From a virus, in the IMG/VR virus record IMGVR_UViG_3300023296_001674: 64,000 bases of DNA; one strand, written 5' to 3'. Below are positions 4,151 to 33,323 of the stretch, one piece after another; positions within the stretch are counted from its first letter, which is position 1; each line of letters starts with the position of its first letter. A model generated the notes under the pieces. It was not told where the DNA came from. It saw only the letters and a program-made list of their open reading frames with translations, and ran no database searches. The position numbers were made by a program, and so were the translations under genes.

Positions 4151-4159
4151 ACAAAGGGG

Positions 4160-4208
4160 TTGACATAGCCCCTTGACTTCCCTACTATACTGGTAGGGAG
4201 GGATGAGG
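4160..4208 (+). repeat. E-element copy 1 (sigma70-like promoter + TAGGGAGGGATGAGG box), plus orientation
   Basis: TTGACA-N17-TACTAT then ctggTAGGGAGGGATGAGG; one of 12 copies of this module. Confidence 0.6.
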
Positions 4209-6536: not shown

Positions 6537-7271
6537 ATGGTAAAACGCAAAACAACAGAACAGTTTATACAAGAATCGACTGCAATTCATGGTGATGTAT
6601 ATGATTATTCATTGACCAATTATATCAATAGACGTACCAAAGTAAAAATAATATGCACCGTTCATGGTATATATGAACAAACTGCGGGAAATCATTTATA
6701 TCAAAAACAAGGTTGCTCAAAATGTGCCGGTGATAAACAGGCATCGAGACAGCGAAAATCACTATCACAGTTTATTCAAGAGGCAACAATAGTTCACGAT
6801 TCTTTATATGATTATTCGTTGGTGGATTACAATCATACTGATATAAAAGTAAAAATAATATGCCCAACGCATGATATATTTAAGCAAACGCCGCATGATC
6901 ATTTACATGGAAAAGGTTGCCCTAAATGCGTTCATACTATATCAAAAGGTGAAACTAACTGGCTTAATCGCATTGGTTTACCAGACGATACACAACATAG
7001 ACAAGTGCGCTTGCCTATGAATAATAATAAAAATCGAAGGGTTGATGGTTATGATCCATTAACCAATACTGTTTATGAATTTCATGGTGATTACTGGCAT
7101 GGCAACCCCGCACGTTTTAATCTCGATGATATAAACCCAACCATTAAAAAACCATACAGACAACTCTATGAAGCCACCTTAACCAAGGAAGTGCTTATCA
7201 AAGATTCCGGTTATAATCTTGTAGTTATGTGGGAGCATGATTGGAAAGCTCATCCCTCCCTAACAGTATAA
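6537..7271 (+). CDS. homing-endonuclease-like protein (tandem zinc-ribbon-like repeats + C-terminal EDxHD/Vsr-like nuclease motif)
   Basis: Two repeats KVKIICxxHGIFxQTPxxHLxGKGCxKC; C-terminus VDGYDPLTNTVYEFHGDYWHGNP; paralog of 11698..12435 and 1..239; start uncertain (track gives TTG 6522). Confidence 0.6.
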   Translation: MVKRKTTEQFIQESTAIHGDVYDYSLTNYINRRTKVKIICTVHGIYEQTAGNHLYQKQGCSKCAGDKQASRQRKSLSQFIQEATIVHDSLYDYSLVDYNHTDIKVKIICPTHDIFKQTPHDHLHGKGCPKCVHTISKGETNWLNRIGLPDDTQHRQVRLPMNNNKNRRVDGYDPLTNTVYEFHGDYWHGNPARFNLDDINPTIKKPYRQLYEATLTKEVLIKDSGYNLVVMWEHDWKAHPSLTV

Positions 7272-7404
7272 TATTAAATTACTCGTAAAAAAGCAATGAT
7301 TATTTTTATAATATGACGTAAATTACTTGTTGACATTGGTTCAGTTAGTTTGTAATATCTTTTTATCAGAACATCATACATTCACAAATGAAAGATTGAA
7401 AATA

Positions 7405-8345: not shown

Positions 8346-8426
8346 AAATCCCCCCGCATGTTCCTACGCAAGTAATGAAGACACTCCATGCGGGGGTTCT
8401 TTTTGTTTTGGCGCACCCAAAAAAAG

Positions 8427-8473
8427 CTCATCCCTCCCTATCAGCATAATAGCAGGGTCAATAGATAAGTCAA
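8427..8473 (-). repeat. E-element copy 2, minus orientation
   Basis: plus strand reads aaaaaaaGCTCATCCCTCCCTATCAG..CATAAT..N17..AGTCAA; i.e. minus-strand TTGACT-N17-ATTATG-ctgaTAGGGAGGGATGAGC-T7; ~90% identical to copy at 18201. Confidence 0.6.
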
Positions 8474-8550
8474 CCATTATTATTAAAAATAAACCATTGA
8501 CAACGGCTTTTGTATTTTATATAATATATAGATTGAAAAGGAGAATTGAA

Positions 8551-8958: not shown

Positions 8959-9035
8959 GGGTTGACATCACTATTTGATTTCGTTATGATTCATCCAAGC
9001 TAACAACACAACATAAATCTTGAAAGGATTTAACT

Positions 9036-9293
9036 ATGGCTAATAAATTCACAATCACACGCACTTATGATCGCGATGAAATTATTGACACAGTTAATAA
9101 ATCCATTGAACAAAACGGAACATATCATCAAATCAAATCGTTGCTTGATACTTTATATACTGGATGGTTTTTTGATATAGAAACGGCTTGCGAAGTTGAA
9201 TTGATTTTACGCGAAAAGGGCGATTTTATTCGCGAGTTTTATCAAGAACGGCTAGACGAAATGAATGCTGCCAAGAAATTTGACTTGGTATAA
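9036..9293 (+). CDS. hypothetical protein
   Basis: ORF track; leader aacaacacaacataaatcttgaaaggatttaac repeated at 9308-9342. Confidence 0.55.
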   Translation: MANKFTITRTYDRDEIIDTVNKSIEQNGTYHQIKSLLDTLYTGWFFDIETACEVELILREKGDFIREFYQERLDEMNAAKKFDLV

Positions 9294-9342
9294 CTATTCA
9301 CTTAAGATAACAACACAACATAAATCTTGAAAGGATTTAACA

Positions 9343-9672
9343 ATGTCTAAAACAATTTCCCGCGTAGACTTCATTGAACTTATGGCAGATGCTGCAATGC
9401 GACTTCCAGTAACACGCAAGCGCAAGCCAGAGGATGACCCATCTGAATTCATCGACTTGTTTGATTATGATGCAATGTCAAACGAATGGTCGAAAGGTGT
9501 TCAGTGGCTTCGTGGCGTTGGTGATAGTGGCACTTATAAAGTTCCGACACCCGATGGAACATTCAAGCGCGTTCCAATGCGAACTATTGCTGAAATGCCA
9601 GCGTTCATTCAAGAGATTGTTACCGAGGCACAAACTCATTTGAATATCGATTCGATTGTCGAGATCGCTTAA
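9343..9672 (+). CDS. hypothetical protein
   Basis: ORF track; duplicated leader. Confidence 0.55.
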   Translation: MSKTISRVDFIELMADAAMRLPVTRKRKPEDDPSEFIDLFDYDAMSNEWSKGVQWLRGVGDSGTYKVPTPDGTFKRVPMRTIAEMPAFIQEIVTEAQTHLNIDSIVEIA

Positions 9673-10775: not shown

Positions 10776-10941
10776 TCAATTAAAAAGGGAAGCAGAAATG
10801 CTTCCCTTTTTTTATGCTTGACACTGGTTTAGTTAATTGCTATGTTAAATCGTCGTTGCCCAAGAAAGCGGGTTGATAAAGACTTGACTGACACTACGAA
10901 GTGTTCTATTGATTAATCATAACAACAAAAAGGAACCGAGT

Positions 10942-13462: not shown

Positions 13463-13520
13463 CACTTGACATCATCGATTAAGTGTTCTATGGTTCACTT
13501 AACAACGAAAGGATAATACA

Positions 13521-13763
13521 ATGTCGGAAATTCGCCACAAAGTAACATTCATGCATGAGGTAGATGGAAAAGACGAACCCTTGACCGTGATGTATGTTTA
13601 TCGTATTCCACAACTCAACGAAATTGTAGTTATGTTGGATTCGAAAATTCGATATCGGGTTCTTGAGGTTCTTAATATTATTGATGATCGAAACATCGAT
13701 TTTAAAAAAGATTATATAACGATGTGTGAAATCGAATATTTCATCAAAGTGTCTTGGAAATAA
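13521..13763 (+). CDS. hypothetical protein
   Basis: ORF track; own promoter; RBS aaaggat. Confidence 0.55.
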   Translation: MSEIRHKVTFMHEVDGKDEPLTVMYVYRIPQLNEIVVMLDSKIRYRVLEVLNIIDDRNIDFKKDYITMCEIEYFIKVSWK

Positions 13764-13808
13764 TATACAAAGCCTTGACTCTATTATCTAATAGTGTTAA
13801 ATAACATC

Positions 13809-14096
13809 ATGGAACTAAACGACCTCCCATCGGTTGCAGCAATGCACCAACACAAGAACCCCGATCAGAAACGGAATGAACGTCGTATGCAGGAATTTAT
13901 AACTGACGATATGATACACCCCGACGAGCCAGCACCACAACATAGGTCGCCTTCGTTGTTGAATGACACCGCCTCGACAGTTGTGTTCGAGGCTGGCATT
14001 GATACACCGCAAATGAGCCGCGATTGTATCATTGCTATATATGAAAAAATATTGGGTGGCAATCCAGAAACTGAACTTAAAAATCTTTTTGCTTGA
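13809..14096 (+). CDS. hypothetical protein
   Basis: Track ORF trimmed; promoter TTGACT ~13776. Confidence 0.45.
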   Translation: MELNDLPSVAAMHQHKNPDQKRNERRMQEFITDDMIHPDEPAPQHRSPSLLNDTASTVVFEAGIDTPQMSRDCIIAIYEKILGGNPETELKNLFA

Positions 14097-14121
14097 CATT
14101 GGTTCAGTTAGTTGCTATAAA
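14093..14121 (+). promoter_or_regulatory. sigma70-type early promoter, cassette family G1
   Basis: TTGACAttggttcagttagttgcTATAAA; leader gtaggtaacttaacccgaaaggaaaca; ~60 bp near-identical at 14713 and 21794. Confidence 0.6.
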
Positions 14122-14147
14122 GTAGGTAACTTAACCCGAAAGGAAAC

Positions 14148-14456
14148 ATGATGAGTGATCAAGTAGAAAGCCTGTTAAATGACGTCGTGAAAGATTTTCG
14201 CGAAAAAACTCTCGCCAAAGCAATTGGTGATCATGTCGGAAAAGTCACAGTTCAACATGCAATCACCCTTTTCAAACTGACGACAATTATTTCTGCATTC
14301 ATGGCAATGTTTAAGTTTGCCGCGTTGGGTGGATTCGTAACGATGAGTTGGGGTTGGGTTGCATTTGTATTCTTGTTGCCACTTCCAATTGCGTTTTTTG
14401 ATGCAATCGCTCTTTCATATGTTGCACATCGTATATATGATAAGGACGAGTCATGA
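14148..14456 (+). CDS. membrane protein (2 predicted TM segments)
   Basis: ORF track; hydrophobic. Confidence 0.55.
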   Translation: MMSDQVESLLNDVVKDFREKTLAKAIGDHVGKVTVQHAITLFKLTTIISAFMAMFKFAALGGFVTMSWGWVAFVFLLPLPIAFFDAIALSYVAHRIYDKDES

Positions 14457-14716
14457 AAATTGATACCTCACGACTTGCAAATATTATGCGCATCGCGTAT
14501 AACAATCATCACATGAACATGGGTAGCCGTTATTTCTGCAATCGCACCGATGAGATATTATATAACACAATGCGTCGGGCAAACTTAACTGGTTTAGATT
14601 TTTTGGATTGCAGCACGATGTCAAAGAACATATCAACAGTTATGCATGGGTTGTTGCCGTGGAGCAATGATTTATATGAAGAACTTCGTGCATTGTTATT
14701 TGTAGAAACCGCTTGA
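14453..14716 (+). CDS. hypothetical protein
   Basis: ORF track; ATGA overlap. Confidence 0.55.
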   Translation: MKIDTSRLANIMRIAYNNHHMNMGSRYFCNRTDEILYNTMRRANLTGLDFLDCSTMSKNISTVMHGLLPWSNDLYEELRALLFVETA

Positions 14717-14741
14717 CTCTGGTTCAGTTAGTTGCTATAAA
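14713..14741 (+). promoter_or_regulatory. sigma70-type early promoter, cassette family G1 (duplicate of 14093)
   Basis: cgcTTGACTctggttcagttagttgcTATAAAgtaggtaacttaacccgaaaggaaacacaATG. Confidence 0.6.
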
Positions 14742-14770
14742 GTAGGTAACTTAACCCGAAAGGAAACACA

Positions 14771-15610
14771 ATGTTCACTTATACCGCAAAAGAAATCAAA
14801 AGCCATATATACAATCATTATAAAATTGATGATGATACTGGCAGGGTCGACGAAGTGTTCGGATGGACTAACTACGGCGTTGATGATTTTCGTGAAGCAT
14901 TGTCGCACGGTATCGAAGTGGCGTTACATAATCACATCGAAAAATCAAAGAAATTATCTACGCGTTTGCGTATTTTGGCTGGTAAGTGGTTGAAATCTAA
15001 AACCATTATCGACGCCATATTTAAATTGGAAGGCAATGTTGTCGACCTGCATGATACCATCACATTGCTCATCGCGTTAAAGCATCGTATCAGAAACGCA
15101 ACCGATCTATCCGACGCAGATCGCCCATCTTATACATATCGTGCCAAAGTGTCCGATTCGTTGCGCGACGAATGTAGCAAATATATTAAAATTACAACAT
15201 TGCGCGACGATGAATTGTTTGTATTGGATTCTCCTCTTTTGGTATGGAGGAACAACGACGACAACAAGTTTTATTCGGTTGCCCACGACTTCGAAATCCG
15301 CGAACATCGCGTAGGTGTAGCGGGTTATGAACATGATCTTGCCAAAGGGGCTGTATCGGTTTCATACTTGATGCATAACTTTAAAACTGATTACACACAA
15401 TATGGTGTATCATATGATGCAGAAACCGGAAACTATTTGCATTGTTCAGTGAATTGTAATGGACCCGAACGCATCGAAAGTTATGAAATTTTCTATGCCA
15501 ATATCGAAGACGCGATTATGGAATCTAAAAAAGGAATTGCGGCATTGAAGAAGAAAAATCGTGCTGTAACAAAAGCCGCAACTGAACACCTTGATAGATT
15601 AGCCGCATGA
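14771..15610 (+). CDS. hypothetical protein (279 aa)
   Basis: ORF track. Confidence 0.6.
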   Translation: MFTYTAKEIKSHIYNHYKIDDDTGRVDEVFGWTNYGVDDFREALSHGIEVALHNHIEKSKKLSTRLRILAGKWLKSKTIIDAIFKLEGNVVDLHDTITLLIALKHRIRNATDLSDADRPSYTYRAKVSDSLRDECSKYIKITTLRDDELFVLDSPLLVWRNNDDNKFYSVAHDFEIREHRVGVAGYEHDLAKGAVSVSYLMHNFKTDYTQYGVSYDAETGNYLHCSVNCNGPERIESYEIFYANIEDAIMESKKGIAALKKKNRAVTKAATEHLDRLAA

Positions 15611-16278: not shown

Positions 16279-16335
16279 TGCTTGACAGTGGTTCAGTTAG
16301 TTGCTATAACAAGGCAACAGATAAAGGACAATCAA

Positions 16336-16944
16336 ATGAAAACGCTTCGTAAAAAACTTCTTGAACTTGAACAGATAAATGTTGATCTGCACAAACTCAA
16401 AGCACCCATCGATAAGAAACTTAAAAAGAATTGGGAAGCGATCAAAGTCGTCAGAAAATCTATTGATGAAGAAGACATTGCGACAATGCTCAAGTTAGGC
16501 GTTGATTGGAAATTTCTTTTGAAACCGGCTAATGATTTTGGCAGTACCGAGATGTATAATTATTTCGACACCCAAGTGCATGAATTGGGAATGCATTCCG
16601 GCGGACGCTGGAGAGACACGCGACAGCCAGTGGTGTCAATCATGCTAACACATGGCGACGAGAAAAGCCTTATGAATAACATCGCAGGAGTTAAACTTCT
16701 TTCACCGTTTTATGAACAGGTTGACGGTGCGGTTCCGTTTGCAATATTTGATCATGGTTTGTCAGAATATGCAGTATATTCAATGACTTATAACCCAACA
16801 ACCAATGAAGTTATTCTAAAGACATTGCGTCATGGCAGAACCGAAGAGAATTTCCTTGGGGCGTTGCCGGATGCTATGAAGCACATACAAGATCATCATT
16901 GGTATGATGGGAAAGAAGAAGATCATGACGACGATGATTATTAA
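16336..16944 (+). CDS. hypothetical protein with acidic C-terminal tail
   Basis: Track ORF trimmed; promoter TTGACA-N17-TATAAC ~16286-16314. Confidence 0.55.
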   Translation: MKTLRKKLLELEQINVDLHKLKAPIDKKLKKNWEAIKVVRKSIDEEDIATMLKLGVDWKFLLKPANDFGSTEMYNYFDTQVHELGMHSGGRWRDTRQPVVSIMLTHGDEKSLMNNIAGVKLLSPFYEQVDGAVPFAIFDHGLSEYAVYSMTYNPTTNEVILKTLRHGRTEENFLGALPDAMKHIQDHHWYDGKEEDHDDDDY

Positions 16945-17451: not shown

Positions 17452-17569
17452 CTTCCATAGCAAAATAGCCATAGCACCTATAGGAAATAACCTATAGAAG
17501 CTATGGTTTTTTCACTCGACAATGGTATAGTTAATTGGTATAACTGTATCAACTTGAAAAGGAACCGTT

Positions 17570-17854
17570 ATGAAATTCACATACAGAACACGCCACATTC
17601 CTTCTGGATCAATATCAGATACCGATGTTGAATGCTATACCGAAGTTGATTTTTTACGGTACTTGAACAAATGGAATGTTGAAGGTAGGGGTTGGTATAT
17701 ATACACCGCTGTTAGCATAACGAATCATTTCCCAATGGCAGGCGCTGCACACGCCCTGAGTAATACAGTTATCGTCCGTAAACCATTGCGCGATATGGAT
17801 GGAGTCAACGCGGACGGTGGATACTGGCAGTCAATTACCGAAACAACCCATTAA
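17570..17854 (+). CDS. hypothetical protein
   Basis: ORF track; promoter cTCGACA..TATAAC ~17517-17546. Confidence 0.55.
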   Translation: MKFTYRTRHIPSGSISDTDVECYTEVDFLRYLNKWNVEGRGWYIYTAVSITNHFPMAGAAHALSNTVIVRKPLRDMDGVNADGGYWQSITETTH

Positions 17855-17875
17855 CATTAACAAAAGGGAACGATC

Positions 17876-18091: not shown

Positions 18092-18177
18092 GTGTGTCAT
18101 AAATGACACAGGTGTGATATAATTATCACACATTGAAAACTGCCTCGATTGGTGGTGTATTCATACCGATAAAAAAA

Positions 18178-18212
18178 GATAAGTCAACCTAAAATAATGG
18201 TTGACTTATCTA
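18178..18212. repeat. perfect 13-bp inverted repeat (hairpin) flanking E-element copy 3
   Basis: aaaaaaAGATAAGTCAACCtaaaataatGGTTGACTTATCT; right arm supplies the -35 TTGACT of the E promoter; would be a minus-strand terminator (stem + U7). Confidence 0.5.
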
Positions 18213-18248
18213 TTGACTCTGTTATTATACTGGTAGGGAGGGATGACC
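18201..18248 (+). repeat. E-element copy 3, plus orientation
   Basis: TTGACT-N17-ATTATA-ctgGTAGGGAGGGATGACC-T5. Confidence 0.6.
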
Positions 18249-18582: not shown

Positions 18583-18789
18583 ATGATACATTGTAGATTC
18601 AGGGATATTCGAGGTATGGGCATTGAAGTCGTTAGAGTCGATCAAGTGCCACCCGTTGATGATATAATTACAATCAATTATGTTATGTATGAAATATTTT
18701 CACGCGAATGGTCGGTGATCGATGCTGAAAAAGATACGCGAATGCTTGCTTGTGATGTATGGTTAACGGAATATAAAAAATCAAGATAA
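18583..18789 (+). CDS. hypothetical protein
   Basis: ORF track. Confidence 0.55.
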   Translation: MIHCRFRDIRGMGIEVVRVDQVPPVDDIITINYVMYEIFSREWSVIDAEKDTRMLACDVWLTEYKKSR

Positions 18790-18849
18790 TGTGTTGACTC
18801 TGGTTTGATTGTTCTTTATAACTTAATAATCAAACCAAGGAGAGATACA

Positions 18850-19050
18850 ATGTTAGTTCAATTATCCGGTAAAACAAACCACGGCAAAAACCGTATTCGT
18901 GAACATGGTTCGAGTTGGATGGTTCAAGACCTTCCGACTGGTGTAATATCAGCAAACCCAATGCCTACCCGCAAAACCCTAGTGTCTGTTTTAACAGGCG
19001 CGGAACGTTGGGTGAGTATGACAAACGATAAAGATTTTATTATCGCTTGA
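18850..19050 (+). CDS. hypothetical protein
   Basis: Track ORF trimmed; palindromic promoter cassette G3 ~18795-18840; RBS aaggag. Confidence 0.5.
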   Translation: MLVQLSGKTNHGKNRIREHGSSWMVQDLPTGVISANPMPTRKTLVSVLTGAERWVSMTNDKDFIIA

Positions 19051-19109
19051 CTCTGATTCGATTGTTCTTTATAACTGAATAATCAAAACAACCCCGAAGG
19101 ATTAAGCAA

Positions 19110-19448
19110 ATGACAGGCATGAATTTTTCAGTATATCGTAACGGACGCGGCGACACTACTAACGGCGGCGTTTCCAGTTATCACGAGTCGCTGAACGTAT
19201 GCGCCGAAGGCATTGCGGAAATCTTTGACGCGACGTATGACACTCCAGCGGTTGCGCTTGTTATTCGTAATGTTTGCAACACCGCTTTTCCGATCATCGT
19301 TCCCATTGACAGCACTGAGGCAGGTGGGACAGAGCGTTACATGTTCGGCGGTAACTTTGCATGGACTTCCGATTCCCGTGTTTCGGAATGGTTGGAAGAA
19401 CGCGGATTTACAAACGCCCCAATCAAAATATTTGACCGACAGGAGTAG
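19110..19448 (+). CDS. hypothetical protein
   Basis: ORF track; G3 promoter ~19048-19078. Confidence 0.55.
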   Translation: MTGMNFSVYRNGRGDTTNGGVSSYHESLNVCAEGIAEIFDATYDTPAVALVIRNVCNTAFPIIVPIDSTEAGGTERYMFGGNFAWTSDSRVSEWLEERGFTNAPIKIFDRQE

Positions 19449-19556: not shown

Positions 19557-19608
19557 AAAGGAGACGGGGTTCGCCCCGTTTTCTTTTAGGTATATATTCC
19601 AGAAAAAA

Positions 19609-19655
19609 CTCATCCCTCCCTACCGTAATAATACCACAATCAACCAAAGAGTCAA
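19609..19655 (-). repeat. E-element copy 4, minus orientation
   Basis: plus: aaaaaaCTCATCCCTCCCTACCGtAATAAT..N17..AGTCAA. Confidence 0.6.
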
Positions 19656-19671
19656 GCGTTAAAGACAAAAA

Positions 19672-20445: not shown

Positions 20446-20506
20446 GTAAAACAAAGGGTGGGGATATTCCCCATCCTTTTTTACATCCATTAACATCCAT
20501 AAAATG

Positions 20507-20554
20507 CTCATCCCTCCCTATCATCACAATACGACCTAACTGTATCAAAGTCAA
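20507..20554 (-). repeat. E-element copy 5, minus orientation
   Basis: plus: aaaatGCTCATCCCTCCCTATCAtCACAAT...AGTCAA. Confidence 0.55.
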
Positions 20555-20618
20555 CACTTATTTTTCACTTGACATATAATATTTTAATGGTATTATACTT
20601 ACAGAAAGGACAAAAATT

Positions 20619-21250: not shown

Positions 21251-21511
21251 ATGAAATTCATATATAAAGATTTAACAGTTTGCGATTTCGATGCGATGTG
21301 TGATATGTTCGCGTCAAACTGCGAAGTGGTCGATTACGTTTATTATGACGGCGAATACGTTGTCGGTGATATCACCGGTATAACAAGTGACCGCCGTTTC
21401 GTGTTAAGTGTGGATGGCGTTGGAACTGAATTGTATTCTAATGCTGGCACGATGTTCGCCGTTGAAGATTATGGTTCTGAAATGCAGGTTCGTATTATTT
21501 CTATAAAATAA
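21251..21511 (+). CDS. hypothetical protein
   Basis: ORF track; promoter TTGACA ~21190. Confidence 0.55.
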   Translation: MKFIYKDLTVCDFDAMCDMFASNCEVVDYVYYDGEYVVGDITGITSDRRFVLSVDGVGTELYSNAGTMFAVEDYGSEMQVRIISIK

Positions 21512-21570
21512 CTGTTGACTCTGGTGTAGTTAGTTCGTATATTAACTACACCAGAACAAAGGAACTGAAT

Positions 21571-21786
21571 ATGCAAAACGCAATCGAACAAGCGACGCAC
21601 CTCGGAATTCAATCATTTAACTCGGGCGAGTCGCTTGTGCCATTCCGCAATAATTCATTGATGGATTTGCTGGAAACACAACGAAATCGCTCATGGGATT
21701 GCACCCCGATTTTAACTGCATATCAAAACGGATTCATAACCGCGCAACAATCTGCGCCCGTACCGGAGGAATTGTTAGTTGCGTAA
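21571..21786 (+). CDS. hypothetical protein
   Basis: ORF track; palindromic promoter cassette G2 ~21516-21555. Confidence 0.55.
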   Translation: MQNAIEQATHLGIQSFNSGESLVPFRNNSLMDLLETQRNRSWDCTPILTAYQNGFITAQQSAPVPEELLVA

Positions 21787-21793
21787 AAACCCC

Positions 21794-21822
21794 TTGACTC
21801 TGGTTCAGTTAGTTGCTATAAC
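21794..21822 (+). promoter_or_regulatory. sigma70-type early promoter, cassette family G1
   Basis: cccTTGACTctggttcagttagttgcTATAACtgtatcaacttaacccgaaaggaacacacaATG. Confidence 0.6.
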
Positions 21823-21852
21823 TGTATCAACTTAACCCGAAAGGAACACACA

Positions 21853-22278
21853 ATGTCTGATGAACTTCCAGTAACACAAACGAAAATCTTGCGCGAAGGT
21901 TTTGTCGCATGTTATGAACACAGAATATGGGGAACTGGATATTTGGACTCCAGCGGCGGAGGTAATTCATTTGTTCAAAAATTGCCCGATAACAAAATTC
22001 GTGACGATATTGAAAAGGCTAATAACGACGCCAAAAGCATCAAATCGATGACAAATTATTATGGCAAAGAACAGGTATCATTCGATACAGTTAAGGTCGT
22101 TTATTATATGGAACGTGCCACACACACAGACGTCACGAATGAAACCGTGTTGAAAAATTTCATCGCTGAACGCGCCTTGAAAAAACTATCCGAGGCCGAA
22201 GTCGAAGCACTTCAAGAATATTATCGATCAGCGGCGATCAGCGAAGATGATGGTCGCCACGGAATGCAAACCCGATAA
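21853..22278 (+). CDS. hypothetical protein
   Basis: ORF track. Confidence 0.6.
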   Translation: MSDELPVTQTKILREGFVACYEHRIWGTGYLDSSGGGNSFVQKLPDNKIRDDIEKANNDAKSIKSMTNYYGKEQVSFDTVKVVYYMERATHTDVTNETVLKNFIAERALKKLSEAEVEALQEYYRSAAISEDDGRHGMQTR

Positions 22279-22885: not shown

Positions 22886-22951
22886 CCCTTGACACTGGTT
22901 CAGTTAATCGCTATAACTTAATCAACGAAACACCAACAGAAAGACAATCAA

Positions 22952-23248
22952 ATGTCAATCGGACAAACAATCATTAGCCAGATCAACGAAATCGATTTTT
23001 GGGCACGCGCCCGTTGGGGTGTAACCGGTGGAACTGGACGAAGACCCATCAAAATCGAGAACGGCGTTAAGTTCAAAACGTGCGGAATAGTTAAGTGGAA
23101 AGGTTGGGTTTCAATTACCCTGAACGGTATGGACACTTATGATATCTCATTCTTTCGTATTCGTGCCGGTGAAATTAGGGTTGACAAGGTGGTTAATAAT
23201 GTTTACAATGACCAACTTGTAACAATCATTGACGAACAGGTTGGTTAA
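22952..23248 (+). CDS. hypothetical protein
   Basis: ORF track; G1-like promoter ~22891-22920. Confidence 0.55.
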   Translation: MSIGQTIISQINEIDFWARARWGVTGGTGRRPIKIENGVKFKTCGIVKWKGWVSITLNGMDTYDISFFRIRAGEIRVDKVVNNVYNDQLVTIIDEQVG

Positions 23249-24209: not shown

Positions 24210-24273
24210 GTGCTTGACAGTGGTTCAGTTAATTGCTATGTTAAATCATCGAAACGAACAAAGGATGACCCAG

Positions 24274-24519
24274 ATGAGAAAAACAATTTTTGCTAACGTT
24301 GATCGCAAGCCTCACCAAGCACCCGGCGGCGAGTTTGAAGTTTTCGACACCGCCACTTCGATGACTATGACGACGGGTATGGGTTGGAAGGCAGCATGGG
24401 AAGAATTCGATAAACTCCACGTTGACGGCGATAACTTAGACGTTCGCCCAAGCACCCCAATTCCTGTTGTTGGTTTCGTTGGTAATATCAATCCGTTATT
24501 GTTGACCGAATTTCGTTAA
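24274..24519 (+). CDS. hypothetical protein
   Basis: Track ORF trimmed; G1-like promoter ~24210-24238; terminator ~24553-24597. Confidence 0.5.
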   Translation: MRKTIFANVDRKPHQAPGGEFEVFDTATSMTMTTGMGWKAAWEEFDKLHVDGDNLDVRPSTPIPVVGFVGNINPLLLTEFR

Positions 24520-24629
24520 AAGTTTCATGGTAAACTAAGGGTTTTCCCCTACCCGGTGAATTGAGCGCAAGTTCTTCATCGGGATTTTTTTGTCTTGACA
24601 TTATTAAAACGTCGTGGTATAGTTAAATC

Positions 24630-24743: not shown

Positions 24744-24750
24744 TCTGGAA

Positions 24751-24820: not shown

Positions 24821-24880
24821 CCTTGACTCCTATGGCTTTACTTGCTATGGTTCTATCAATTCAAACGAAAGGACAATATT

Positions 24881-25382: not shown

Positions 25383-25428
25383 TGCATTATCGATTGACTC
25401 GTGTATGATCATATCAGGGAGGGATCAG
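25383..25428 (+). repeat. E-element copy (variant), plus orientation
   Basis: TTGCAT..TATGAT..catatCAGGGAGGGATCAGcg-T6. Confidence 0.45.
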
Positions 25429-26054: not shown

Positions 26055-26069
26055 CCGATTCATACAAGG

Positions 26070-26104
26070 AAAAGAAAGTCAAGAGAAATCTTGACTTTCT
26101 TTTC
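26070..26104 (+). terminator. rho-independent terminator (repeated hairpin type containing TTGAC)
   Basis: gAAAGTCAAGAgaaaTCTTGACTTTCttttcg; same core hairpin at 27834-27872. Confidence 0.6.
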
Positions 26105-26152
26105 GATTCATTTGTTCACGTTTTGTTCTTATAAGATGATACCCAAAAAAAA

Positions 26153-26201
26153 CTCATCCCTCCCTGATACAAAATTACCACGTTTACCCCATACGAGTCA
26201 A
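26153..26201 (-). repeat. E-element copy 6, minus orientation
   Basis: plus: aaaaaaaaCTCATCCCTCCCTGATAC...GAGTCAA. Confidence 0.55.
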
Positions 26202-26292
26202 CACTTAATTTATTTTTATTTAGGGGGTTGACTCATCTGATGCCTACCTTTATAACTACAAATAGAAACCAACCACATAAGGAATTGCCCAC

Positions 26293-26595
26293 ATGAAAAA
26301 CACTTACATAAACGCAGTATTCTTTAATGTATCTAACGAAAACGGTTTGGATACGTTTGCCGATAAGGTCCAGAAAGCATTGGATTGCGAATTGTTTTAT
26401 TATGAAAATGGTAGGGAAATAGGCGTGGTTACGTGTGGCGGTTCCCCATCTGGCAAGGATTACCAGTTTGGCATGGGTGGTGGCAACTTTGATTTGGATC
26501 ATAACGTGGTGCTATATTCCGAACCCGCTACCGTGTTCGTTATGTTCGATGACGCTAGTGGTAGCAGGTGCGTTCAGCCAGTAAGCCACCGATAA
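26293..26595 (+). CDS. hypothetical protein
   Basis: ORF track; G4 promoter cassette catttagggggTTGACTcatctgatgcctaccttTATAAC ~26215-26252 (duplicated at 26716). Confidence 0.55.
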   Translation: MKNTYINAVFFNVSNENGLDTFADKVQKALDCELFYYENGREIGVVTCGGSPSGKDYQFGMGGGNFDLDHNVVLYSEPATVFVMFDDASGSRCVQPVSHR

Positions 26596-26648
26596 GAAAA
26601 GAAATCGGCGCGGGGGCAAATTAGCCCTTGCGCCTTTTTTTGTTTCGT

Positions 26649-26677
26649 GGTATAAAATCCGTAGGGGGGGATGAGCC
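26649..26677 (+). repeat. degenerate E-like box (GGGGGGG variant)
   Basis: gtggTATAAAatccGTAGGGGGGGATGAGCC. Confidence 0.3.
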
Positions 26678-26790
26678 GATTTTATCATCAAAATTTATTT
26701 TAATAATAGTGCATTTAGGGGGTTGACTCATCTGATGCCTACCTTTATAACTACAAATAGAAACCAACCACAACCCCGAAGGAACTTATC

Positions 26791-27168
26791 ATGCAAAAAG
26801 TAATCGCCCACATCGAAGCAATCAACGCAGCAACCGGCAGCACTTGGGTTTTGAACGCGGATCATTGGGCTGGCTACGAAATAACCACACCCGAAGCGTT
26901 TGATCGTTATGTGCTTACCACAAGCATTTGGGATGCATACAAATATGGCTTGGGCTTTAAGCCACACGGCATGATGATGGAAGCAATGAGCATGGAACAG
27001 TTGGAACGCGAACTGGAAAGCGTTCGCGCTTCAATCGATGCGAACGCCGAACACGAAGCCGAACGGGAACGGGTGAACAATTTCACTTGGCAAGAACATC
27101 TTGCTTGCGCCAACATGCCAGCAATGGCAAACGACTCCCCCTTCGCAGTGTTGCAGGGGGTGCGATAA
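26791..27168 (+). CDS. hypothetical protein
   Basis: ORF track; duplicated G4 promoter 26716-26753; terminator 27180-27206. Confidence 0.55.
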   Translation: MQKVIAHIEAINAATGSTWVLNADHWAGYEITTPEAFDRYVLTTSIWDAYKYGLGFKPHGMMMEAMSMEQLERELESVRASIDANAEHEAERERVNNFTWQEHLACANMPAMANDSPFAVLQGVR

Positions 27169-27228
27169 CCAACCGAAAGGGGCGGGGGATTTTCCCCCGT
27201 TTTTTCGCGCCAGCAATTCCAAAAAAAA

Positions 27229-27277
27229 GACATCCCTCCCTATGGTGATATTAGCACTATTGCCCAAACAGAGTCAA
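27229..27277 (-). repeat. E-element copy 8 (GACATCC variant), minus orientation
   Basis: plus: aaaaaaaaGACATCCCTCCCTATGGTGATATTA..N18..AGTCAA. Confidence 0.55.
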
Positions 27278-27333
27278 CACTTATTTTCGCCCCCAAATTT
27301 CAGGCATCACCCAATCTTACCACGTTTTCGAAT

Positions 27334-27375
27334 TACAAGTCAACCCCCTATTTTAATTCATTTAAGGGGTTGACT
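27334..27375. repeat. 11-bp perfect inverted repeat around promoter -35
   Basis: GAGTCAACCCCctattttaattcatttaaGGGGTTGACTC. Confidence 0.5.
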
Positions 27376-27431
27376 CTGTTTGGGTTGGGTAGTAATATCC
27401 CTTTATCAACTTAACAAAAGGAAACAAACAC

Positions 27432-27821
27432 ATGGATTCATTAAACGTTTTTGCGGATTCGAAAGTTGGCGATGGTGCAACGATCAATATGTATAGCGAT
27501 TCAAAGGCTTGCACGATTGTGGCGATTAGTGATAAGCGTATCACGGTTCAATATGACGATGTTAAATTGTTGAACGGTGCGAAATCTGGCGAACCCGATG
27601 CACTGGTTTTTGATGTAGGCGGATTTTCCGCACACTGTTCAGGTCGCCAGCGTTGGGAAACAACACCAAACCCCGAAGGCGGCAAGGTGACTTATTCCCT
27701 GCGCAAGTGGAACGACTACAAAAATGAACCAGTTATGCGGTGGGCACCAGTTGGCAGCAAACGCCACGAAGGTTCAGGCTTAACCGAAGGAAGGCATCAC
27801 CACTACGATTTCAATTTCTAG
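27432..27821 (+). CDS. hypothetical protein
   Basis: ORF track; promoter TTGACT..TAATAT ~27371-27400. Confidence 0.55.
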   Translation: MDSLNVFADSKVGDGATINMYSDSKACTIVAISDKRITVQYDDVKLLNGAKSGEPDALVFDVGGFSAHCSGRQRWETTPNPEGGKVTYSLRKWNDYKNEPVMRWAPVGSKRHEGSGLTEGRHHHYDFNF

Positions 27822-27833
27822 GCACAAGGAAAA

Positions 27834-27872
27834 AGGAGAGTCAAGAGAAATCTTGACTTTTCTTTTTTTATT
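27834..27872 (+). terminator. rho-independent terminator (second copy of TTGAC-containing hairpin)
   Basis: ggAGAGTCAAGAgaaaTCTTGACTtttcttttttt. Confidence 0.6.
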
Positions 27873-27891
27873 TTTTCCGCCGCCAAAAAAA

Positions 27892-27939
27892 GGTCATCCC
27901 TCCCTACCACCATAATACACTATTCGAACAACGAGTCAA
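27892..27939 (-). repeat. E-element copy 9, minus orientation
   Basis: plus: aaaaaaaGGTCATCCCTCCCTACCACCATAATAC..N17..GAGTCAA. Confidence 0.6.
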
Positions 27940-27944
27940 GACTA

Positions 27945-28072: not shown

Positions 28073-28180
28073 CTACACCATAATACATTAAACAAAATAG
28101 ATGTCAACACTTATTTTAGGGGTTGACACTAACAATCGAAACCGCTATAACTGTATCAACTTAACCAAAAGGAACACCCA

Positions 28181-28390
28181 ATGTCAAACCAAGCATTTGT
28201 AGTTTATAACGGCAAAATCACAGTCAAGACTGAGATTTACGACGGCGGTTTATATTTCGCCGACACCGTGAAAGAAGTGACACAACGCTTGCGCGATTGC
28301 GAGACGTTGGTTGTTAAATCTGGCAGTGAACGCGACCTTAAGAAAATCGTCACCGTCGCCGACCTTTTCACAAACAATCCCCAAGGATAA
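28181..28390 (+). CDS. hypothetical protein
   Basis: ORF track; promoter TTGACA..TATAAC with G5 leader. Confidence 0.55.
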   Translation: MSNQAFVVYNGKITVKTEIYDGGLYFADTVKEVTQRLRDCETLVVKSGSERDLKKIVTVADLFTNNPQG

Positions 28391-28889: not shown

Positions 28890-28950
28890 CCGTTGACACT
28901 GGTACATGAAACCGATATAACTGTATCAACTTAACCAAAAGGATCATATC

Positions 28951-29310
28951 ATGGAAACAATATCGCGGTTTTATGCGCACGCTGGCAAAATTGCCATAAC
29001 GATTGGCGCGGGTGATACTACATATATCACCACAGACCAAGCCGAAATGATCGGCGCTAAATTATCTGAACTTGCCAGTCAAGTGAAAAACGGCAATCAT
29101 TCGACTACGGTTGAAGTTCCCGCAACTGAAGAACAAATGAAACGGATGCGTGAGGATGCGCCCGAAATTTATAAAATCATTCGTTGTTATCGCAATGGCA
29201 ATAGCCCCCGCACAATTGCACGTAGTGTAACGATTTTCGAAGCGCAAGAACATTGTAGCGATCCATCAACCTCAAACACCAAATATTTTGATGGATATGA
29301 GTTGAAATAG
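28951..29310 (+). CDS. hypothetical protein
   Basis: ORF track; promoter TTGACA..TATAAC + G5 leader. Confidence 0.55.
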   Translation: METISRFYAHAGKIAITIGAGDTTYITTDQAEMIGAKLSELASQVKNGNHSTTVEVPATEEQMKRMREDAPEIYKIIRCYRNGNSPRTIARSVTIFEAQEHCSDPSTSNTKYFDGYELK

Positions 29311-29370
29311 GTCTTGACTCTGGTGTAGTTAGTTCGTATATTAACTACACCAGAACAAAGGAACAAACAA

Positions 29371-29511
29371 ATGTCAAACGCTGAAATGTATCTCGATTGG
29401 GTTAACAATTTTTTAACTGTTGCACGGTTCGCCGAATATTACAATATCTCCGAGACCGAAGCTCTTGCCGTGATCGAAAAAGGTCGCATCGACCACCACG
29501 CAAATCTGTAA
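29371..29511 (+). CDS. small protein (46 aa)
   Basis: Not in track; palindromic G2 promoter 29313-29357 (identical to 21516); RBS caaaggaacaaacaa-ATG. Confidence 0.4.
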   Translation: MSNAEMYLDWVNNFLTVARFAEYYNISETEALAVIEKGRIDHHANL

Positions 29512-29529: not shown

Positions 29530-29829
29530 ATGCAAGTCACAACCGAACAACTCGAAACTTTCCTAACTAAAGCGCAAGCACATGTAAACGCTGATTACAG
29601 CACTAACTTTGAAGGCGATGCGCCAACACTTTCGATTGACCCAATGACCGAACGATCTAAGTACGCCAAAATCGTGAAAGATACCGGTCAACGTTCATTG
29701 TGGGGTTTCGTTGAACTATCAACCGGCAATCTGTTGACAGGCAGTTGGAAAGCACCACGCAAATCAAAATCAACATGCGGTCATATTGACGAGCCATTCT
29801 TACCACGGACTCGCTGGATGAGTGTATAA
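29530..29829 (+). CDS. hypothetical protein
   Basis: ORF track. Confidence 0.55.
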   Translation: MQVTTEQLETFLTKAQAHVNADYSTNFEGDAPTLSIDPMTERSKYAKIVKDTGQRSLWGFVELSTGNLLTGSWKAPRKSKSTCGHIDEPFLPRTRWMSV

Positions 29830-29895
29830 TAAACCCTTGACTCTGATTCAGTTATTCTTTATAACTGAATAATCAGAACAACGAAAGAAAATCCA

Positions 29896-30072
29896 ATGGT
29901 AGGCAAACTTAATTTTCGTGTATTCCAAGATGGCAAACAACACATTGTTTCCGCACGTAGCATCGTGGTTCGTTTTGAACAAGGTGCATTCATATCAGCT
30001 AACATAAGACAAGATAGTGCCGAATATCTTGAAGCATGTGAAGCAATGGTTAAACATGATATGGGCGAATGA
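29896..30072 (+). CDS. small protein (58 aa)
   Basis: Not in track; G3 palindromic promoter 29838-29880; RBS gaaagaaa. Confidence 0.35.
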   Translation: MVGKLNFRVFQDGKQHIVSARSIVVRFEQGAFISANIRQDSAEYLEACEAMVKHDMGE

Positions 30073-30253: not shown

Positions 30254-30282
30254 TAAAAACAACAGCCGGAGTCACTTAGGTG

Positions 30283-30329
30283 TTGACTCCGGCATTTTTC
30301 CTGCTAATATACTATCAGGGAGGGATGAG
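30283..30329 (+). repeat. E-element copy 11, plus orientation (its -35 lies in the upstream terminator stem)
   Basis: CCGGAGTCActtaggtgTTGACTCCGGcatttttcctgctAATATActaTCAGGGAGGGATGAG. Confidence 0.6.
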
Positions 30330-30444
30330 TAAAATTCGCCCCGAAAAAAACTTTCATTTTATTTCATTTAAGGGGTTGACTCTGATCGGGTTGGGTAGTA
30401 ATATCACTACATCAAAACAAACCAACAACCCAAGGAACAAAACC

Positions 30445-31029
30445 ATGGCAACCGATAAAAATGGCTTAACACTTTCAAACGCTTCTGATTCTGGTTATAA
30501 ATTTGTAACTACTTTGTTTGAAGGACCGCTGGCTGGAAAGTTCGTCGCCTTCGCGGATGTTAAAACCGCCGAATTGCAACGCCTGAACAAATCTCACGCG
30601 CACGGAATAAACGGTTTCTTTGGATTCAAAAACGTTGTTCCGTTGGGCGTTTTCGATGATGTGCGCGACGCCGCATACGTTGGACAAACATTCCACGCAG
30701 GGAACGCAGATGACCGCGACGACAACCTTGCCGAATTATACGCTGGCAATGAGTCAGTTATCCCTAAATCATTGACCGATTGGGATAATCCCGCCGATGT
30801 TACTTCAATGAAAAAAGCCGCAACCCGCGCAAAAACCCGACGCATGGGTAAAACATTCGATGCAAAAAAAGCCGAGACCGCAATCGATAAGTTTGCCAAC
30901 AATTTCAAATCATACAAAATCGGTAACATGGATGTCCGCGTAATCTTGGAACGCATGAAAGAACTGTTTGATAACGGAACAAGCTTAACCCTTTCCGCCG
31001 AAACCGTTTGCTCCGATTACCAGCGATAA
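30445..31029 (+). CDS. hypothetical protein (194 aa)
   Basis: Track ORF 30280..31029 trimmed (N-terminal extension would translate the promoter region); promoter TTGACT..TAATAT ~30368-30397. Confidence 0.55.
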   Translation: MATDKNGLTLSNASDSGYKFVTTLFEGPLAGKFVAFADVKTAELQRLNKSHAHGINGFFGFKNVVPLGVFDDVRDAAYVGQTFHAGNADDRDDNLAELYAGNESVIPKSLTDWDNPADVTSMKKAATRAKTRRMGKTFDAKKAETAIDKFANNFKSYKIGNMDVRVILERMKELFDNGTSLTLSAETVCSDYQR

Positions 31030-31060
31030 CCCTTGACTCTGGTGTAATTGATAAGTATAA

Positions 31061-31363
31061 TTGATTACACCAGAACAAAAGGAATTTAACATGGATAAAC
31101 GCGATGTGATTGTAATTTGCGTTGGCAGTGCCGCCGATGATATACGCGCACTTAATCACGCAACAAACTCCGCAGTTCTAGTCGTTGAAGATAAACCCGC
31201 AATTCACGAAATGGCATTGATGGATGATATATTTTTAACCGATGAAGCAAAAGATATGTTTGTGCTTGAATTAATCGAAGACGCGTTGCCAAAGAATTTT
31301 CTAAGTGAACCAAAACCCCGAAAGGCTTGGAAAAACGAATTCGAAAATCTAGGTCGTAAATAA
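31061..31363 (+). CDS. hypothetical acidic protein
   Basis: ORF track; palindromic promoter 31033-31078. Confidence 0.55.
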   Translation: MITPEQKEFNMDKRDVIVICVGSAADDIRALNHATNSAVLVVEDKPAIHEMALMDDIFLTDEAKDMFVLELIEDALPKNFLSEPKPRKAWKNEFENLGRK

Positions 31364-31387
31364 ATCAAAACCAGAGTCACTTAGGTG

Positions 31388-31434
31388 TTGACTCTGGATT
31401 TCTTTCTGCTATTATACTGTCAGGGAGGGATGAC
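31388..31434 (+). repeat. E-element copy 12, plus orientation
   Basis: CCAGAGTCActtaggtgTTGACTCTGGatttctttctgctATTATActgTCAGGGAGGGATGAC. Confidence 0.6.
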
Positions 31435-32593: not shown

Positions 32594-32654
32594 AAGGTTG
32601 ACAGTAAGGATATGATATCGTATTATATCCTTACTGAAACGAAAGGAACACACA

Positions 32655-32756
32655 ATGACACACGGTAACGGCAAGATCAGGCGATTCGCAGGCAATCTAG
32701 GGGCGCTAATGCTGGCAGCGCTGGCAGGCTACGCGACGCTGGTGGTCCTAGCATAA
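32655..32756 (+). CDS. small hydrophobic peptide (33 aa)
   Basis: Not in track; strong palindromic promoter 32589-32640; RBS gaaaggaacacaca-ATG; MTHGNGKIRRFAGNLGALMLAALAGYATLVVLA. Confidence 0.4.
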   Translation: MTHGNGKIRRFAGNLGALMLAALAGYATLVVLA

Positions 32757-33319: not shown

Positions 33320-33323
33320 AACA

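Follow-up and report, generated by a model that had tools for sequence, protein, structure and literature searches.

Look-alike promoter cassettes ahead of unrelated early genes in an uncultivated ~570-kb phage and their probable role in gene shuffling

Introduction

Why should near-identical blocks of about 60 bp, each made up of a promoter and a leader, recur in front of early genes that have nothing else in common? The question is raised by IMG/VR record IMGVR_UViG_3300023296_001674, a stretch of viral DNA of 64,000 nucleotides (the window, by which we mean its full length), whose positions 13,809 to 14,770 contain two such blocks. A preliminary description sorted these blocks into families termed G1 to G5, added a duplicated leader, and likened them all to PeSL elements, mobile terminator-promoter modules of T4-type phages. 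In phages RB49 and phi1 a PeSL consists of an upstream stop codon in an AT-rich stretch, a consensus sigma70 promoter and a stem-loop, followed by a Shine-Dalgarno (SD) sequence and ATG, with the stem-loop mostly lying between the -35 and -10 or overlapping the -10 and containing G-T pairs (PMC2839356). These elements are dense in hyperplastic regions, where insertions or deletions (indels) of open reading frames (ORFs) are flanked by two PeSLs, and the crossovers that give rise to RB49 mini-circles fall between the -10 and the ATG (PMC2839356). The concept has been extended to the phage pairs T4/PST and KVP40/nt-1, along with a second class, PmSL, that is built on another promoter type (PMC4122927).

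In this study we describe the anatomy of the cassettes in the window, ask how far they resemble one another beyond a shared consensus, and compare the region with four related genomes. Our reading is that recombination between look-alike cassettes probably inserts, deletes and reorders genes, in the manner proposed for PeSLs, within the early-gene region of an uncultivated, metagenomic phage with a genome of ~570 kb. Additionally, we describe two features that are absent from the preliminary description, namely a stem-loop that encloses the -10 hexamer and a separate promoter class marked by the sequence AGGGAGGGAT.

Results

Cassettes of one design precede unrelated genes

Between 4 and 33 kb the window is a one-strand array of ~55 small ORFs, almost all without homologs or domains. 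Ahead of these small, mostly unknown genes there are 38 plus-strand cassettes with a common order of parts: the stop codon of the upstream ORF, TTGAC(A/T), a spacer mostly of 17 nt, TATAAC/T, a leader of ~25-35 nt, AAAGGA and, after 5-9 nt, ATG. The stop is either a TGA inside the TTGAC (14093, 14713, 19047) or a TAA/TAG 3-8 nt before the -35, where the typical context is aTAAccc or aTAActg. Among 76 promoters from three genomes, 38 have a stop inside the TTGAC or within 15 nt of the -35. The pattern TTGACW-N17-TATAAM occurs 18 times as compared to 0.12 expected, and all matches except one are plus-strand sites within 4.6-30 kb. Cassettes are limited to the 4-33 kb region with its mostly orphan ORFs, which is the setting expected from the hyperplastic regions that house PeSLs.

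The G1 family illustrates the similarity best. In its first copy (14091..14150; this and the cassettes that follow are all on the plus strand) the TGA of ORF 13809-14096 lies inside TTGACA (14093), followed by the spacer ttggttcagttagttgc, TATAAA, the SD GAAAGGAAA and an ATG at 14148. In the second (14711..14773) the TGA of ORF 14453-14716 lies inside TTGACT and the ATG is at 14771. Positions 14091-14148 and 14711-14768 differ at only 2 of 58 nt, and the two copies bracket a 620-bp unit made up of two orphan ORFs that overlap and have no homolog in any locus compared; a homolog search with the next gene, ORF 14771-15610, matched only itself. A third member (21792..21855; -35 at 21794, ATG 21853) is a hybrid in which the G1 promoter and spacer are joined to the G5 leader tgtatcaacttaacccgaaaggaac, and it is 84% identical to the 14713 cassette. 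The two G2 copies, at 21506..21573 (ATG 21571) and, before an unrelated ORF, at 29305..29373 (ATG 29371), are 95% identical over 60 nt (21506-21565 vs 29305-29364). The two G4 copies, at 26218..26295 (ATG 26293; no embedded stem) and, ahead of ORF 26791-27168, which is unrelated, at 26713..26793, have 100% identity across 60 nt (26218-26277 and 26713-26772). Identity ends just short of the ATG in G1 and G2, and between the -10 and the SD in G4.

These similarities exceed what a shared consensus provides. Pairwise comparison of the 38 cassettes, by ungapped alignment over 69 nt, returned six pairs at or above 75% identity with a maximum of 88%. The best pair in 1000 simulations that kept the base frequencies of each column averaged 63% and never rose above 72%. 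Columns outside the -35, the -10 and AAAGGA carry little information. The genes behind duplicated cassettes show no detectable similarity in all-against-all BLASTP (E <= 1e-4), in agreement with the preliminary claim that the repeats stand before unrelated genes. All of the families listed there, including the duplicated leader, are indeed present within a few bases of where they had been placed, save that two of the four G5 leader copies, given at 28125 and 28905, had been set ~20 nt too far left; the G5 leader follows the -10 at 17539, 21818, 28146 and 28916.

Could the pairs be errors of assembly, either chimeric joins or collapsed repeats? With a metagenomic contig as the source, the thought is a natural one. 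The window proteins match exactly on a contig of 570,549 bp, and a second sample yielded a contig that is also 570,549 bp but has a different start point, which suggests that the phage map is circular or circularly permuted. Shorter contigs from six further samples are 99.95-100% identical to the window. Thus, at least eight samples (ENA, JGI, Logan), assembled independently, agree to 99.95-100% across the cassettes. Furthermore, the repeats, at no more than 60 nt, are shorter than the assembly k-mer, which the contig names give as k141, and cannot cause mis-joins; we consider the chance of an artefact to be negligible.

A second thought is that the pairs are leftovers of tandem gene duplication whose coding parts have diverged beyond recognition. 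Several near-identical pairs are indeed adjacent, with spacings of 253, 307, 495, 620 and 770 bp. However, duplication followed by divergence would require non-coding DNA to be kept far better than protein, since cassettes are 87-100% identical and the ORFs have no similarity at the above threshold. The ORF lengths also differ, and the orphan ORF beginning at 9036 (discussed below) has its sole homolog at another site in a related genome. Tandem duplication as the origin of the pairs is therefore very improbable.

Cassette repeats flank gene gains and losses between relatives

Four related genomes were found via helicase homologs at 78, 77, 73 and 69% identity (loci L018 with L034, L022, L031 and L033). 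The relatives carry rIIB just upstream of the cassette region. Their coding DNA is ~67-77% identical to that of the window, with several cassettes reaching 80-91%. The G1 cassette, searched as an exact pattern in IMG/VR and GTDB genomes, gave no match.

The preliminary description had proposed that relatives be compared for undisturbed synteny around the cassettes. No such synteny exists. The backbone from the helicase gene to the Macro-domain gene is conserved, broken by gene gains, losses and replacements. From the Macro gene to the gene for the ArdC-like protein, the window has 18.2 kb as compared to 10.5 kb in the L018/L034 phage; seven genes are common to both, and these run 19900, 22952, 24842, 25560, 29530, 30068, 30454 in the window and 24842, 22952, 29530, 25560, 19900, 30068, 30454 in the relative.

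Two indels of orphan genes are bounded by cassette repeats. In the first, a 55-nt leader that includes the ATG is present twice in the window. The left copy (8989..9043, plus strand) stands behind a promoter at 8962-8990 and extends through the ATG of orphan ORF 9036-9293; the right copy (9296..9350, plus strand) is 89% identical and extends through the ATG of ORF 9343-9672. This is the duplicated leader that had been reported at 8993 and 9308. In L022 there is one promoter and one copy of the leader (12692-12746) directly before the ortholog of ORF 9343, and the orphan ORF is absent; the only homolog of that orphan, 40% identical, is found at a different position in L031. In the second indel, the orphan ORF 16047-16388 of L022 lies between two copies (15987 and 16385) of the cassette of the Macro gene. 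L018 has a single copy, the left flank of which continues the left context and the right flank of which continues into Macro. Additionally, L018 contains an empty tandem duplication of 92 bp (9156-9353; 97%) that consists of a promoter, a leader and the first four codons, as well as an orphaned cassette copy after gene 17790-18221.

These comparisons bear on plain promoter conservation, whereby selection for strong promoters, leaders and ribosome-binding sites keeps the cassettes alike and they take no part in rearrangement. Cassettes of orthologous genes are 57% identical as compared to 40% for those of non-orthologs, and the same spacer flavour, TGGTnCAnTTA, occurs in all five genomes, which argues for functional constraint on the spacer. 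However, the pairs with 87-100% identity across 58-60 nt ahead of unrelated genes are unmatched in the 1000 simulations, and the best pairs within the window (up to 94%) are closer than any pair of orthologous cassettes between the window and a relative (at most 82%), from which we take the within-window pairs to be recent. Promoter conservation alone also does not account for two orphan indels flanked by direct cassette repeats or for the shuffled gene order. We thus regard it as an unlikely explanation by itself, and read the cassettes as mostly vertically inherited with occasional recent duplication or exchange.

A stem-loop encloses the -10 in a variety of sequences

In many cassettes the segment that directly follows the -35 is complementary to the one that directly follows the -10, which places the -10 hexamer in a loop. 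G1 copy 1 has the embedded stem GGTTCAGTTA/TAACTTAACC (-13.6 kcal/mol), and the G2 copy at 21506 has a perfect 12-bp stem, CTGGTGTAGTTA/TAACTACACCAG, with the -10 TATATT in its loop (-20.4 kcal/mol). Two further plus-strand cassettes carry strong stems: one at 31025..31093 (ATG 31091) has a 10-bp stem, CTGGTGTAAT/ATTACACCAG, around TATAAT (-16.3 kcal/mol), and one at 32590..32657 (ATG 32655) has a stem, GTAAGGATATGATA/TATTATATCCTTAC, with an arm sequence unrelated to the rest (-15.7 kcal/mol). Additional pairings are seen at 32598 (GTAAGGATAT...ATATCCTTAC) and at 18794 (TGGTTTGATT...AATCAAACCA).

The stems were tested on 115 promoters from the window and the four related genomes. Of 113 distinct promoters, 39 have an inverted repeat with a score of 6 or more around the -10. 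Mean folding energy of the spacer, the -10 and the following 20 nt is -7.36 kcal/mol when each spacer is kept with its own partner and -4.69 +/- 0.21 kcal/mol for chimeras in which the spacer of one promoter is joined to the downstream segment of another, a gap of ~12 standard deviations. By reading of the folding and inverted-repeat outputs, there are at least nine unrelated arm sequences, which is covariation rather than a single conserved motif. Loop length varies from 3 to 16 nt and the register of the stem differs between promoters. A single fixed secondary-structure alignment for counting covariation was dropped on account of these differing registers, and the chimera, strand-asymmetry and mismatch-type comparisons were used in its place.

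Three further properties concern the strand. Internal non-Watson-Crick appositions comprise 12 G-T and 4 A-C. Folding is better for the plus strand than for the minus strand in 31 of 44 strong cases (Wilcoxon p = 6e-4). Promoters within 15 nt of an upstream stop have stems of -9.0 kcal/mol, as compared to -5.3 kcal/mol after a long spacer (p = 0.014). Taken together, the energies, covariation, G-T bias, strand asymmetry and proximity to stops point to a structure that is selected in plus-sense RNA. As the 5' arm is upstream of the predicted start site of the cassette itself, the hairpin would arise only in RNA transcribed through from the upstream gene. Its role there may be that of an intercistronic attenuator, a processing site or a structure that stabilises or protects a 3' end.

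An inverted repeat centred on a -10 could instead be a DNA operator, TGGTnCAGTTA-N7-TAACTGnACCA, for a dimeric phage or host regulator that shuts off or times the early promoters, in which case the repeat families would make up a regulon and not an RNA structure; such an arrangement could coexist with cassette recombination. The half-site TGGTTCAGTTA (<=2 mismatches) occurs 88 times as compared to 21 expected, often as plus/minus pairs 18-27 nt apart that straddle the -10, and related half-sites, TGGTGCACTTA, recur in the relatives. However, at least nine promoters have equally good stems built from unrelated arms, for example GTAAGGATAT, GTTTGATTAAGTG, ATGGGGCGG, AGCTTCTGG, GGTAGGGG and TCAGTGGGGAT, and the register and loop length vary. 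A mismatch bias to G-T on the plus strand, better folding of that strand, and stronger stems where read-through from upstream is likely are also not expected of a DNA operator. We consequently give the operator explanation little weight as compared to a structure that acts in RNA.

A promoter class with an invariant initial sequence

A second promoter class is defined by the motif AGGGAGGGATGA (<=1 mismatch), which occurs 13 times as compared to 0.2 expected, all within 4195-31433 of the window. Plus-strand copies are at 4195, 18235, 25416, 26663, 30317 and 31422, with minus-strand copies at 7261, 8439, 19621, 20519, 26165, 27241 and 27905. Each stands exactly 6 nt past a TATTAT-type -10, with TTGACT 16-18 nt further upstream, and because of this fixed distance the motif would represent the transcript start, AGGGAGGGAT(G)A. 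The AGGGAGGGAT sequence is kept in all four relatives, 13 copies in all, so that the design of a consensus sigma70 promoter plus an invariant 10-nt initial transcribed sequence is retained down to 69% helicase identity. A reading of the motif as ribosome-binding site and start codon of a mini-ORF was rejected: some copies have ATA, ATT or ATC in place of ATG, only 1-2 nt separate the end of the GGAGG core from the ATG, and the frames downstream show no conservation. Since the G after AGGGAGGGAT is not always present, this is not a start codon.

Plus-strand copies lie behind a hairpin whose 3' arm overlaps the -35, with an ordinary cassette ~50 nt downstream. For example, the module at 4160..4206 has a hairpin (4154-4174) that overlaps the -35, then TACTAT, 6 nt and AGGGAGGGATGA, with an ordinary promoter at 4254; that at 18176..18246 has a 13-bp hairpin with TTGACT in its 3' arm, then TATTAT, 6 nt and AGGGAGGGATGA, with an ordinary promoter at 18280; and that at 25394..25427 (AGGGAGGGATCA) is downstream of hairpin 25333-25364, with an ordinary promoter at 25497. 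In the terminator and promoter unit at 26607..26674 the 3' arm of the hairpin holds the -35 TTGCGC, followed by TATAAA, 6 nt and the one-mismatch variant AGGGGGGGATGA. Two composite terminator-promoters complete the set: at 30266..30328 the hairpin GCCGGAGTCA...TGACTCCGGC has TTGACT in its 3' arm and is followed by TAATAT, 6 nt and AGGGAGGGATGA, and at 31371..31433 a sequence 83% identical to the 30257-30328 copy again leads to AGGGAGGGATGA.

This arrangement explains the earlier observation that TTGAC in terminator stems doubles as the next -35, as the -35 of plus-strand copies overlaps the 3' arm of the hairpin. The observation holds for 30266-30299 and 31371-31405, which have a real-looking promoter, and extends to hairpins at 4150-4185 and 18176-18215 and, with the weaker TTGCGC, at 26607-26634. 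It does not hold for the stems at 26069-26104 and 27828-27869, in which TTGAC has no -10 partner on either strand. These two terminators are long and perfect and have a common stem core, AGTCAAGA/TCTTGACT, that comprises a -35 hexamer and its complement without a usable -10; they may be decayed back-to-back promoters.

Each minus-strand copy lies beyond the terminator of a plus-strand gene and is directed back into that terminator, with predicted RNAs of 45-95 nt. The module at 7250..7300 overlaps the 3' end of a DUF723 gene (6537-7271), and that at 8383..8478 fires into a hairpin/terminator region (8383-8425). The one at 19561..19660 faces a bidirectional terminator (19561-19579) and would yield an RNA of ~60 nt, and that at 20459..20559 faces terminator 20459-20473. 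Those at 27184..27282 (AGGGAGGGATGT) and 27828..27944 face, respectively, terminator 27184-27197 and the 19-bp terminator 27828-27869, the stem of which includes GTCAAGA/TCTTGAC. The module at 26069..26204, which faces terminator 26069-26104, contains the 18-mer GAACAAAACGTGAACAAA and has orthologs on the minus strand of L018 (20205-20370) and L031 (17800-17965); the 18-mer is invariant across these three genomes and the terminator sequence is different in each, so that the unit looks like a conserved small RNA of ~95 nt. Hairpins with T-runs in these islands are at 19561, 20459, 26069, 26607, 27184 and 27828. Overall, about half of the AGGGAGGGAT copies have no gene ahead of them and lead directly into a terminator.

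Searches for the class elsewhere were negative. A scan of IMG/VR with the motif gave 79 matches, of which 78 were single and one contig had two, with no clustered contig other than those described here. The more distant IMG/VR helicase relatives (<=46% identity) contain neither the G1 nor the AGGGAGGGATGA motif, and a literature search with the motif string returned only unrelated eukaryotic and plastid matches. Our leading guess is that AGGGAGGGAT is a 5'-terminal, SD-like leader that protects RNA, with a small RNA, an insulator that acts by convergent transcription and an operator at +1 as alternatives. It is possible, but doubtful, that these units constitute an undescribed phage regulatory element of small RNAs or insulators placed on either side of transcription units that can move independently; on this reading the units may also form the inverted-repeat borders of what they enclose. 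This class is the least explained and potentially the most novel part of the region.

Several other regulatory candidates were observed. At 24595-24745 (plus strand) a near-consensus promoter, TTGACA-17-TATAGT with an upstream TG, lies ~90 nt ahead of a strong terminator (24714-24738, then a T-run); the space between them has no ORF, and the segment is a candidate small RNA gene. Just upstream of a promoter at 24823 there are three 23-bp direct repeats, CC(C/T)ATAGCATCAACAGGTTTTTT (24751-24836), with a fourth, CCTATGGC, in the spacer of that promoter. In L018 another gene has similar CTATAGC repeats ahead of it (~18840-18900), and the window set is probably a local operator array; CCTATAGC was rejected as a genome-wide motif as it is not enriched and forms only this local iteron array. 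In L034, a few kb after ArdC, a small protein with a Sigma70_r4 domain is encoded beside response-regulator receiver-domain proteins (13163-14006), and these are possible phage regulators of the promoter classes described above.

Further cassettes of the array

Further cassettes, all on the plus strand, extend the families. Diverged G1 copies are found at 16279..16338 (-35 at 16282, ATG 16336), with a spacer as in G1 and a different leader; at 22886..22954 (-35 at 22889), before ORF 22952-23248, which is 53% identical to L018 18532-18837; and at 24211..24276 (-35 at 24214, ATG 24274), which is 93% identical to a diverged G1 promoter at 10815..10855 (-35 at 10818) that has a long leader with its ATG at 10942. 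Others are at 7330 and 19838. G3 has copies at 18786..18852 (-35 at 18794, stem TGGTTTGATTGTT/AATAATCAAACCA, ATG 18850), at 19039..19112 (-35 at 19047, which contains the stop codon, ATG 19110) and at 29829..29898 (-35 at 29837), the last being 87% identical to the 19039 copy and standing before ORF 29896-30072.

Cassettes related to G4 are at 27350..27434 (catttaaggggTTGACTc, -10 TAATAT, ATG 27432) and at 30356..30447, where the sequence is 90% identical to the 27350 copy and the ATG at 30445 opens an ORF 68% identical to L034 6981-7568. A G5-type cassette at 17516..17572 has the -35 TCGACA, the stem TGGTATAGTTA/TAACTGTATCA and an ATG at 17570, and G5 cassettes at 28123..28183 (leader tgtatcaacttaaccaaaaggaac, ATG 28181) and 28893..28953 (ATG 28951) are 85% identical. 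The leader of ORF 25578-26054 is unusually long (25497-25580) and includes a segment, ttgttccaaggcaNtaNcgcctaacacagattgaaaggga, that is conserved in three genomes (L018 19667-19750; L031 17202-17285); it may be a regulatory 5' untranslated region.

The phage and its early region

Recognisable genes of the window are phage-like, and encode a UvrD-type helicase, SprT-like, HNH, Macro-domain and ArdC-like anti-restriction proteins, homing endonucleases, a methyltransferase and tail-fibre-like proteins. The cassette region has no DNA match to GenBank phages by megablast or blastn, and scans of the whole window returned no Rfam match and no tRNA. The helicase is nearest to those of Brevundimonas siphophages. 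The rIIB of one relative is nearest to PA5oct-like jumbo phages, with T4-likes matched too. These matches do not show the phage to be T4-type, and no T4 core gene is present within the window.

The G+C content is 40-44% in the cassette-rich early region and 33-36% beyond, with the drop at ~33000-34000, which is also where the dense cassettes and the AGGGAGGGATGA motif end. Three DUF723 paralogs with mutual identity of ~52% lie at 1-239 (minus strand, running on upstream), 6537-7271 (plus) and 11698-12435 (minus); their flanks are conserved (repeats D8/D9) and the sites are empty in L018 and L022, a distribution that resembles the pattern expected of homing-endonuclease-like mobile genes. A short GAT/TCC-rich array with a 36-bp period (38087-38192), inside ORF 37596-38357, encodes an Asp/Ser-rich tract.

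Discussion

The mechanism that we propose starts from a hyperplastic early-gene region at 4-33 kb in which nearly every small ORF or ORF pair would have a cassette of its own. Each cassette would supply the stop of the upstream ORF, a near-consensus promoter for host sigma70, a short leader, an SD and a start codon. We infer promoter activity from the match to consensus, with transcription predicted to start 6-8 nt past the -10 or, in the second class, at the A of AGGGAGGG. At tight junctions the promoter would abut the upstream ORF and the spacer would pair with the first transcribed bases, with the -10 looped out, while the islands would consist of a true terminator, a AGGGAGGGAT-class promoter in either orientation and then an ordinary promoter. 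Homologous recombination between same-strand patches of 50-70 nt, crossing over somewhere between the -10 and the ATG, would then delete, insert or reorder whole, expression-ready ORFs. That whole ORFs would be moved follows from the observation that the near-identical patches share one strand and precede genes that are unrelated. That recombination caused the indels, possibly through a circular intermediate such as a mini-circle, is what we infer from the repeats at their borders.

Several observations weigh against this mechanism and should be considered with it. The cassette promoters are matches to a consensus only. A clear stem is present in only about one third of the promoters, and the sequence after the embedded stems is rich in A rather than U, so that the stems are not canonical intrinsic terminators, unlike the stem-loop tested in RB49. 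Most cassettes appear to be inherited vertically with their genes, as judged by the higher identity between orthologs. Since nearly all of the intergenic space is cassette, any whole-gene indel must end in one; the specific evidence is thus only the two repeat-flanked indels and the empty duplication. Each of these indels may be an insertion or a deletion. The nearest relative is only 78% identical in its helicase, and DNA identity of only ~70% limits how finely the indel borders can be placed. Finally, copies of this phage from other samples have no indels and show no recent recombination event.

How does the region compare with described PeSLs? As regards sequence, the assignment is supported by the promoter, stop, stem-loop, SD/ATG, genomic region and indels alike, in line with the PeSL-type interpretation of the preliminary description; mobility itself would follow from these features. 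Cassettes of the window have the same stop-to-ATG layout, TTGACA-N17-TATAAT promoter, G-T-containing stem-loop and orphan-rich region as those in RB49 and phi1, as well as indels flanked by two cassettes and probable crossovers between the -10 and ATG (PMC2839356). There are also clear differences. RB49 and phi1 are T4-like coliphages of 165 kb, whereas the present phage is ~570 kb and has no DNA similarity to known phages. The stems in RB49 and phi1 are of the polyG/polyC type, while those reported here either vary in sequence or belong to the TGGTnnAGTTA type; they typically have the whole -10 inside them and A-rich sequence after them. For RB49, promoter and terminator activity and mini-circles have been demonstrated, whereas here they are deduced from the DNA sequence. 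The genomes compared were ~96% identical in protein in that case and are ~70% identical in DNA in ours.

The islands are closer to the composite terminator-promoter motifs found beside indels, replacements and displaced ORFs in PST/T4 and nt-1/KVP40 (PMC4122927), where the stem-loop is just upstream of the promoter, unlike the embedded stems of the window. PmSLs are analogous to our second promoter class in being a second type of cassette, with the -35 of AGGGAGGGATGA modules lying in the 3' arm of a terminator hairpin. The MotA box on which PmSLs are built has no counterpart in the window. No conserved initial transcribed sequence is reported for PeSLs or PmSLs in that work (PMC4122927), unlike the AGGGAGGGAT class.

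A role for the embedded stem in RNA can be placed beside that of other early-gene structures. The early region of phage T7 has three upstream promoters that are shared by all of the genes, with RNase III processing hairpins between genes that do not overlap promoters. T7 and the present phage both have stem-loops between consecutive early cistrons on read-through RNA, and separation of cistrons and a protective 3' hairpin are plausible in each. The window differs in having one promoter per gene and hairpins that overlap promoters, and cleavage of these is hypothetical. The AGGGAGGGAT leader has a possible parallel in Gram-positive hosts, where the polypurine leader of SP82 early RNA and the STAB-SD of cryIIIA (Bacillus) are 5'-terminal, SD-like stabilisers of mRNA. 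These have a GGAGG-like polypurine tract at the extreme 5' end, as does an RNA that would begin with the invariant AGGGAGGGAT at +1; however, about half of the AGGGAGGGAT copies run into a terminator.

The bias of the stems to the plus strand argues that the stem-loop half of the cassette acts in read-through RNA, a matter left open in the original PeSL papers. On the practical side, the design provides a rule by which early transcription units and hot spots of recombination can be predicted in contigs of huge phages, and the region offers ~40 natural and very compact promoter/leader parts of predicted high strength. Cassettes of the PeSL type have so far been described only in cultured T4-like phages. 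Their occurrence in a ~570-kb lineage suggests that the shuffling of cassettes with one promoter per ORF may be a general route by which large virulent phages try out new genes.

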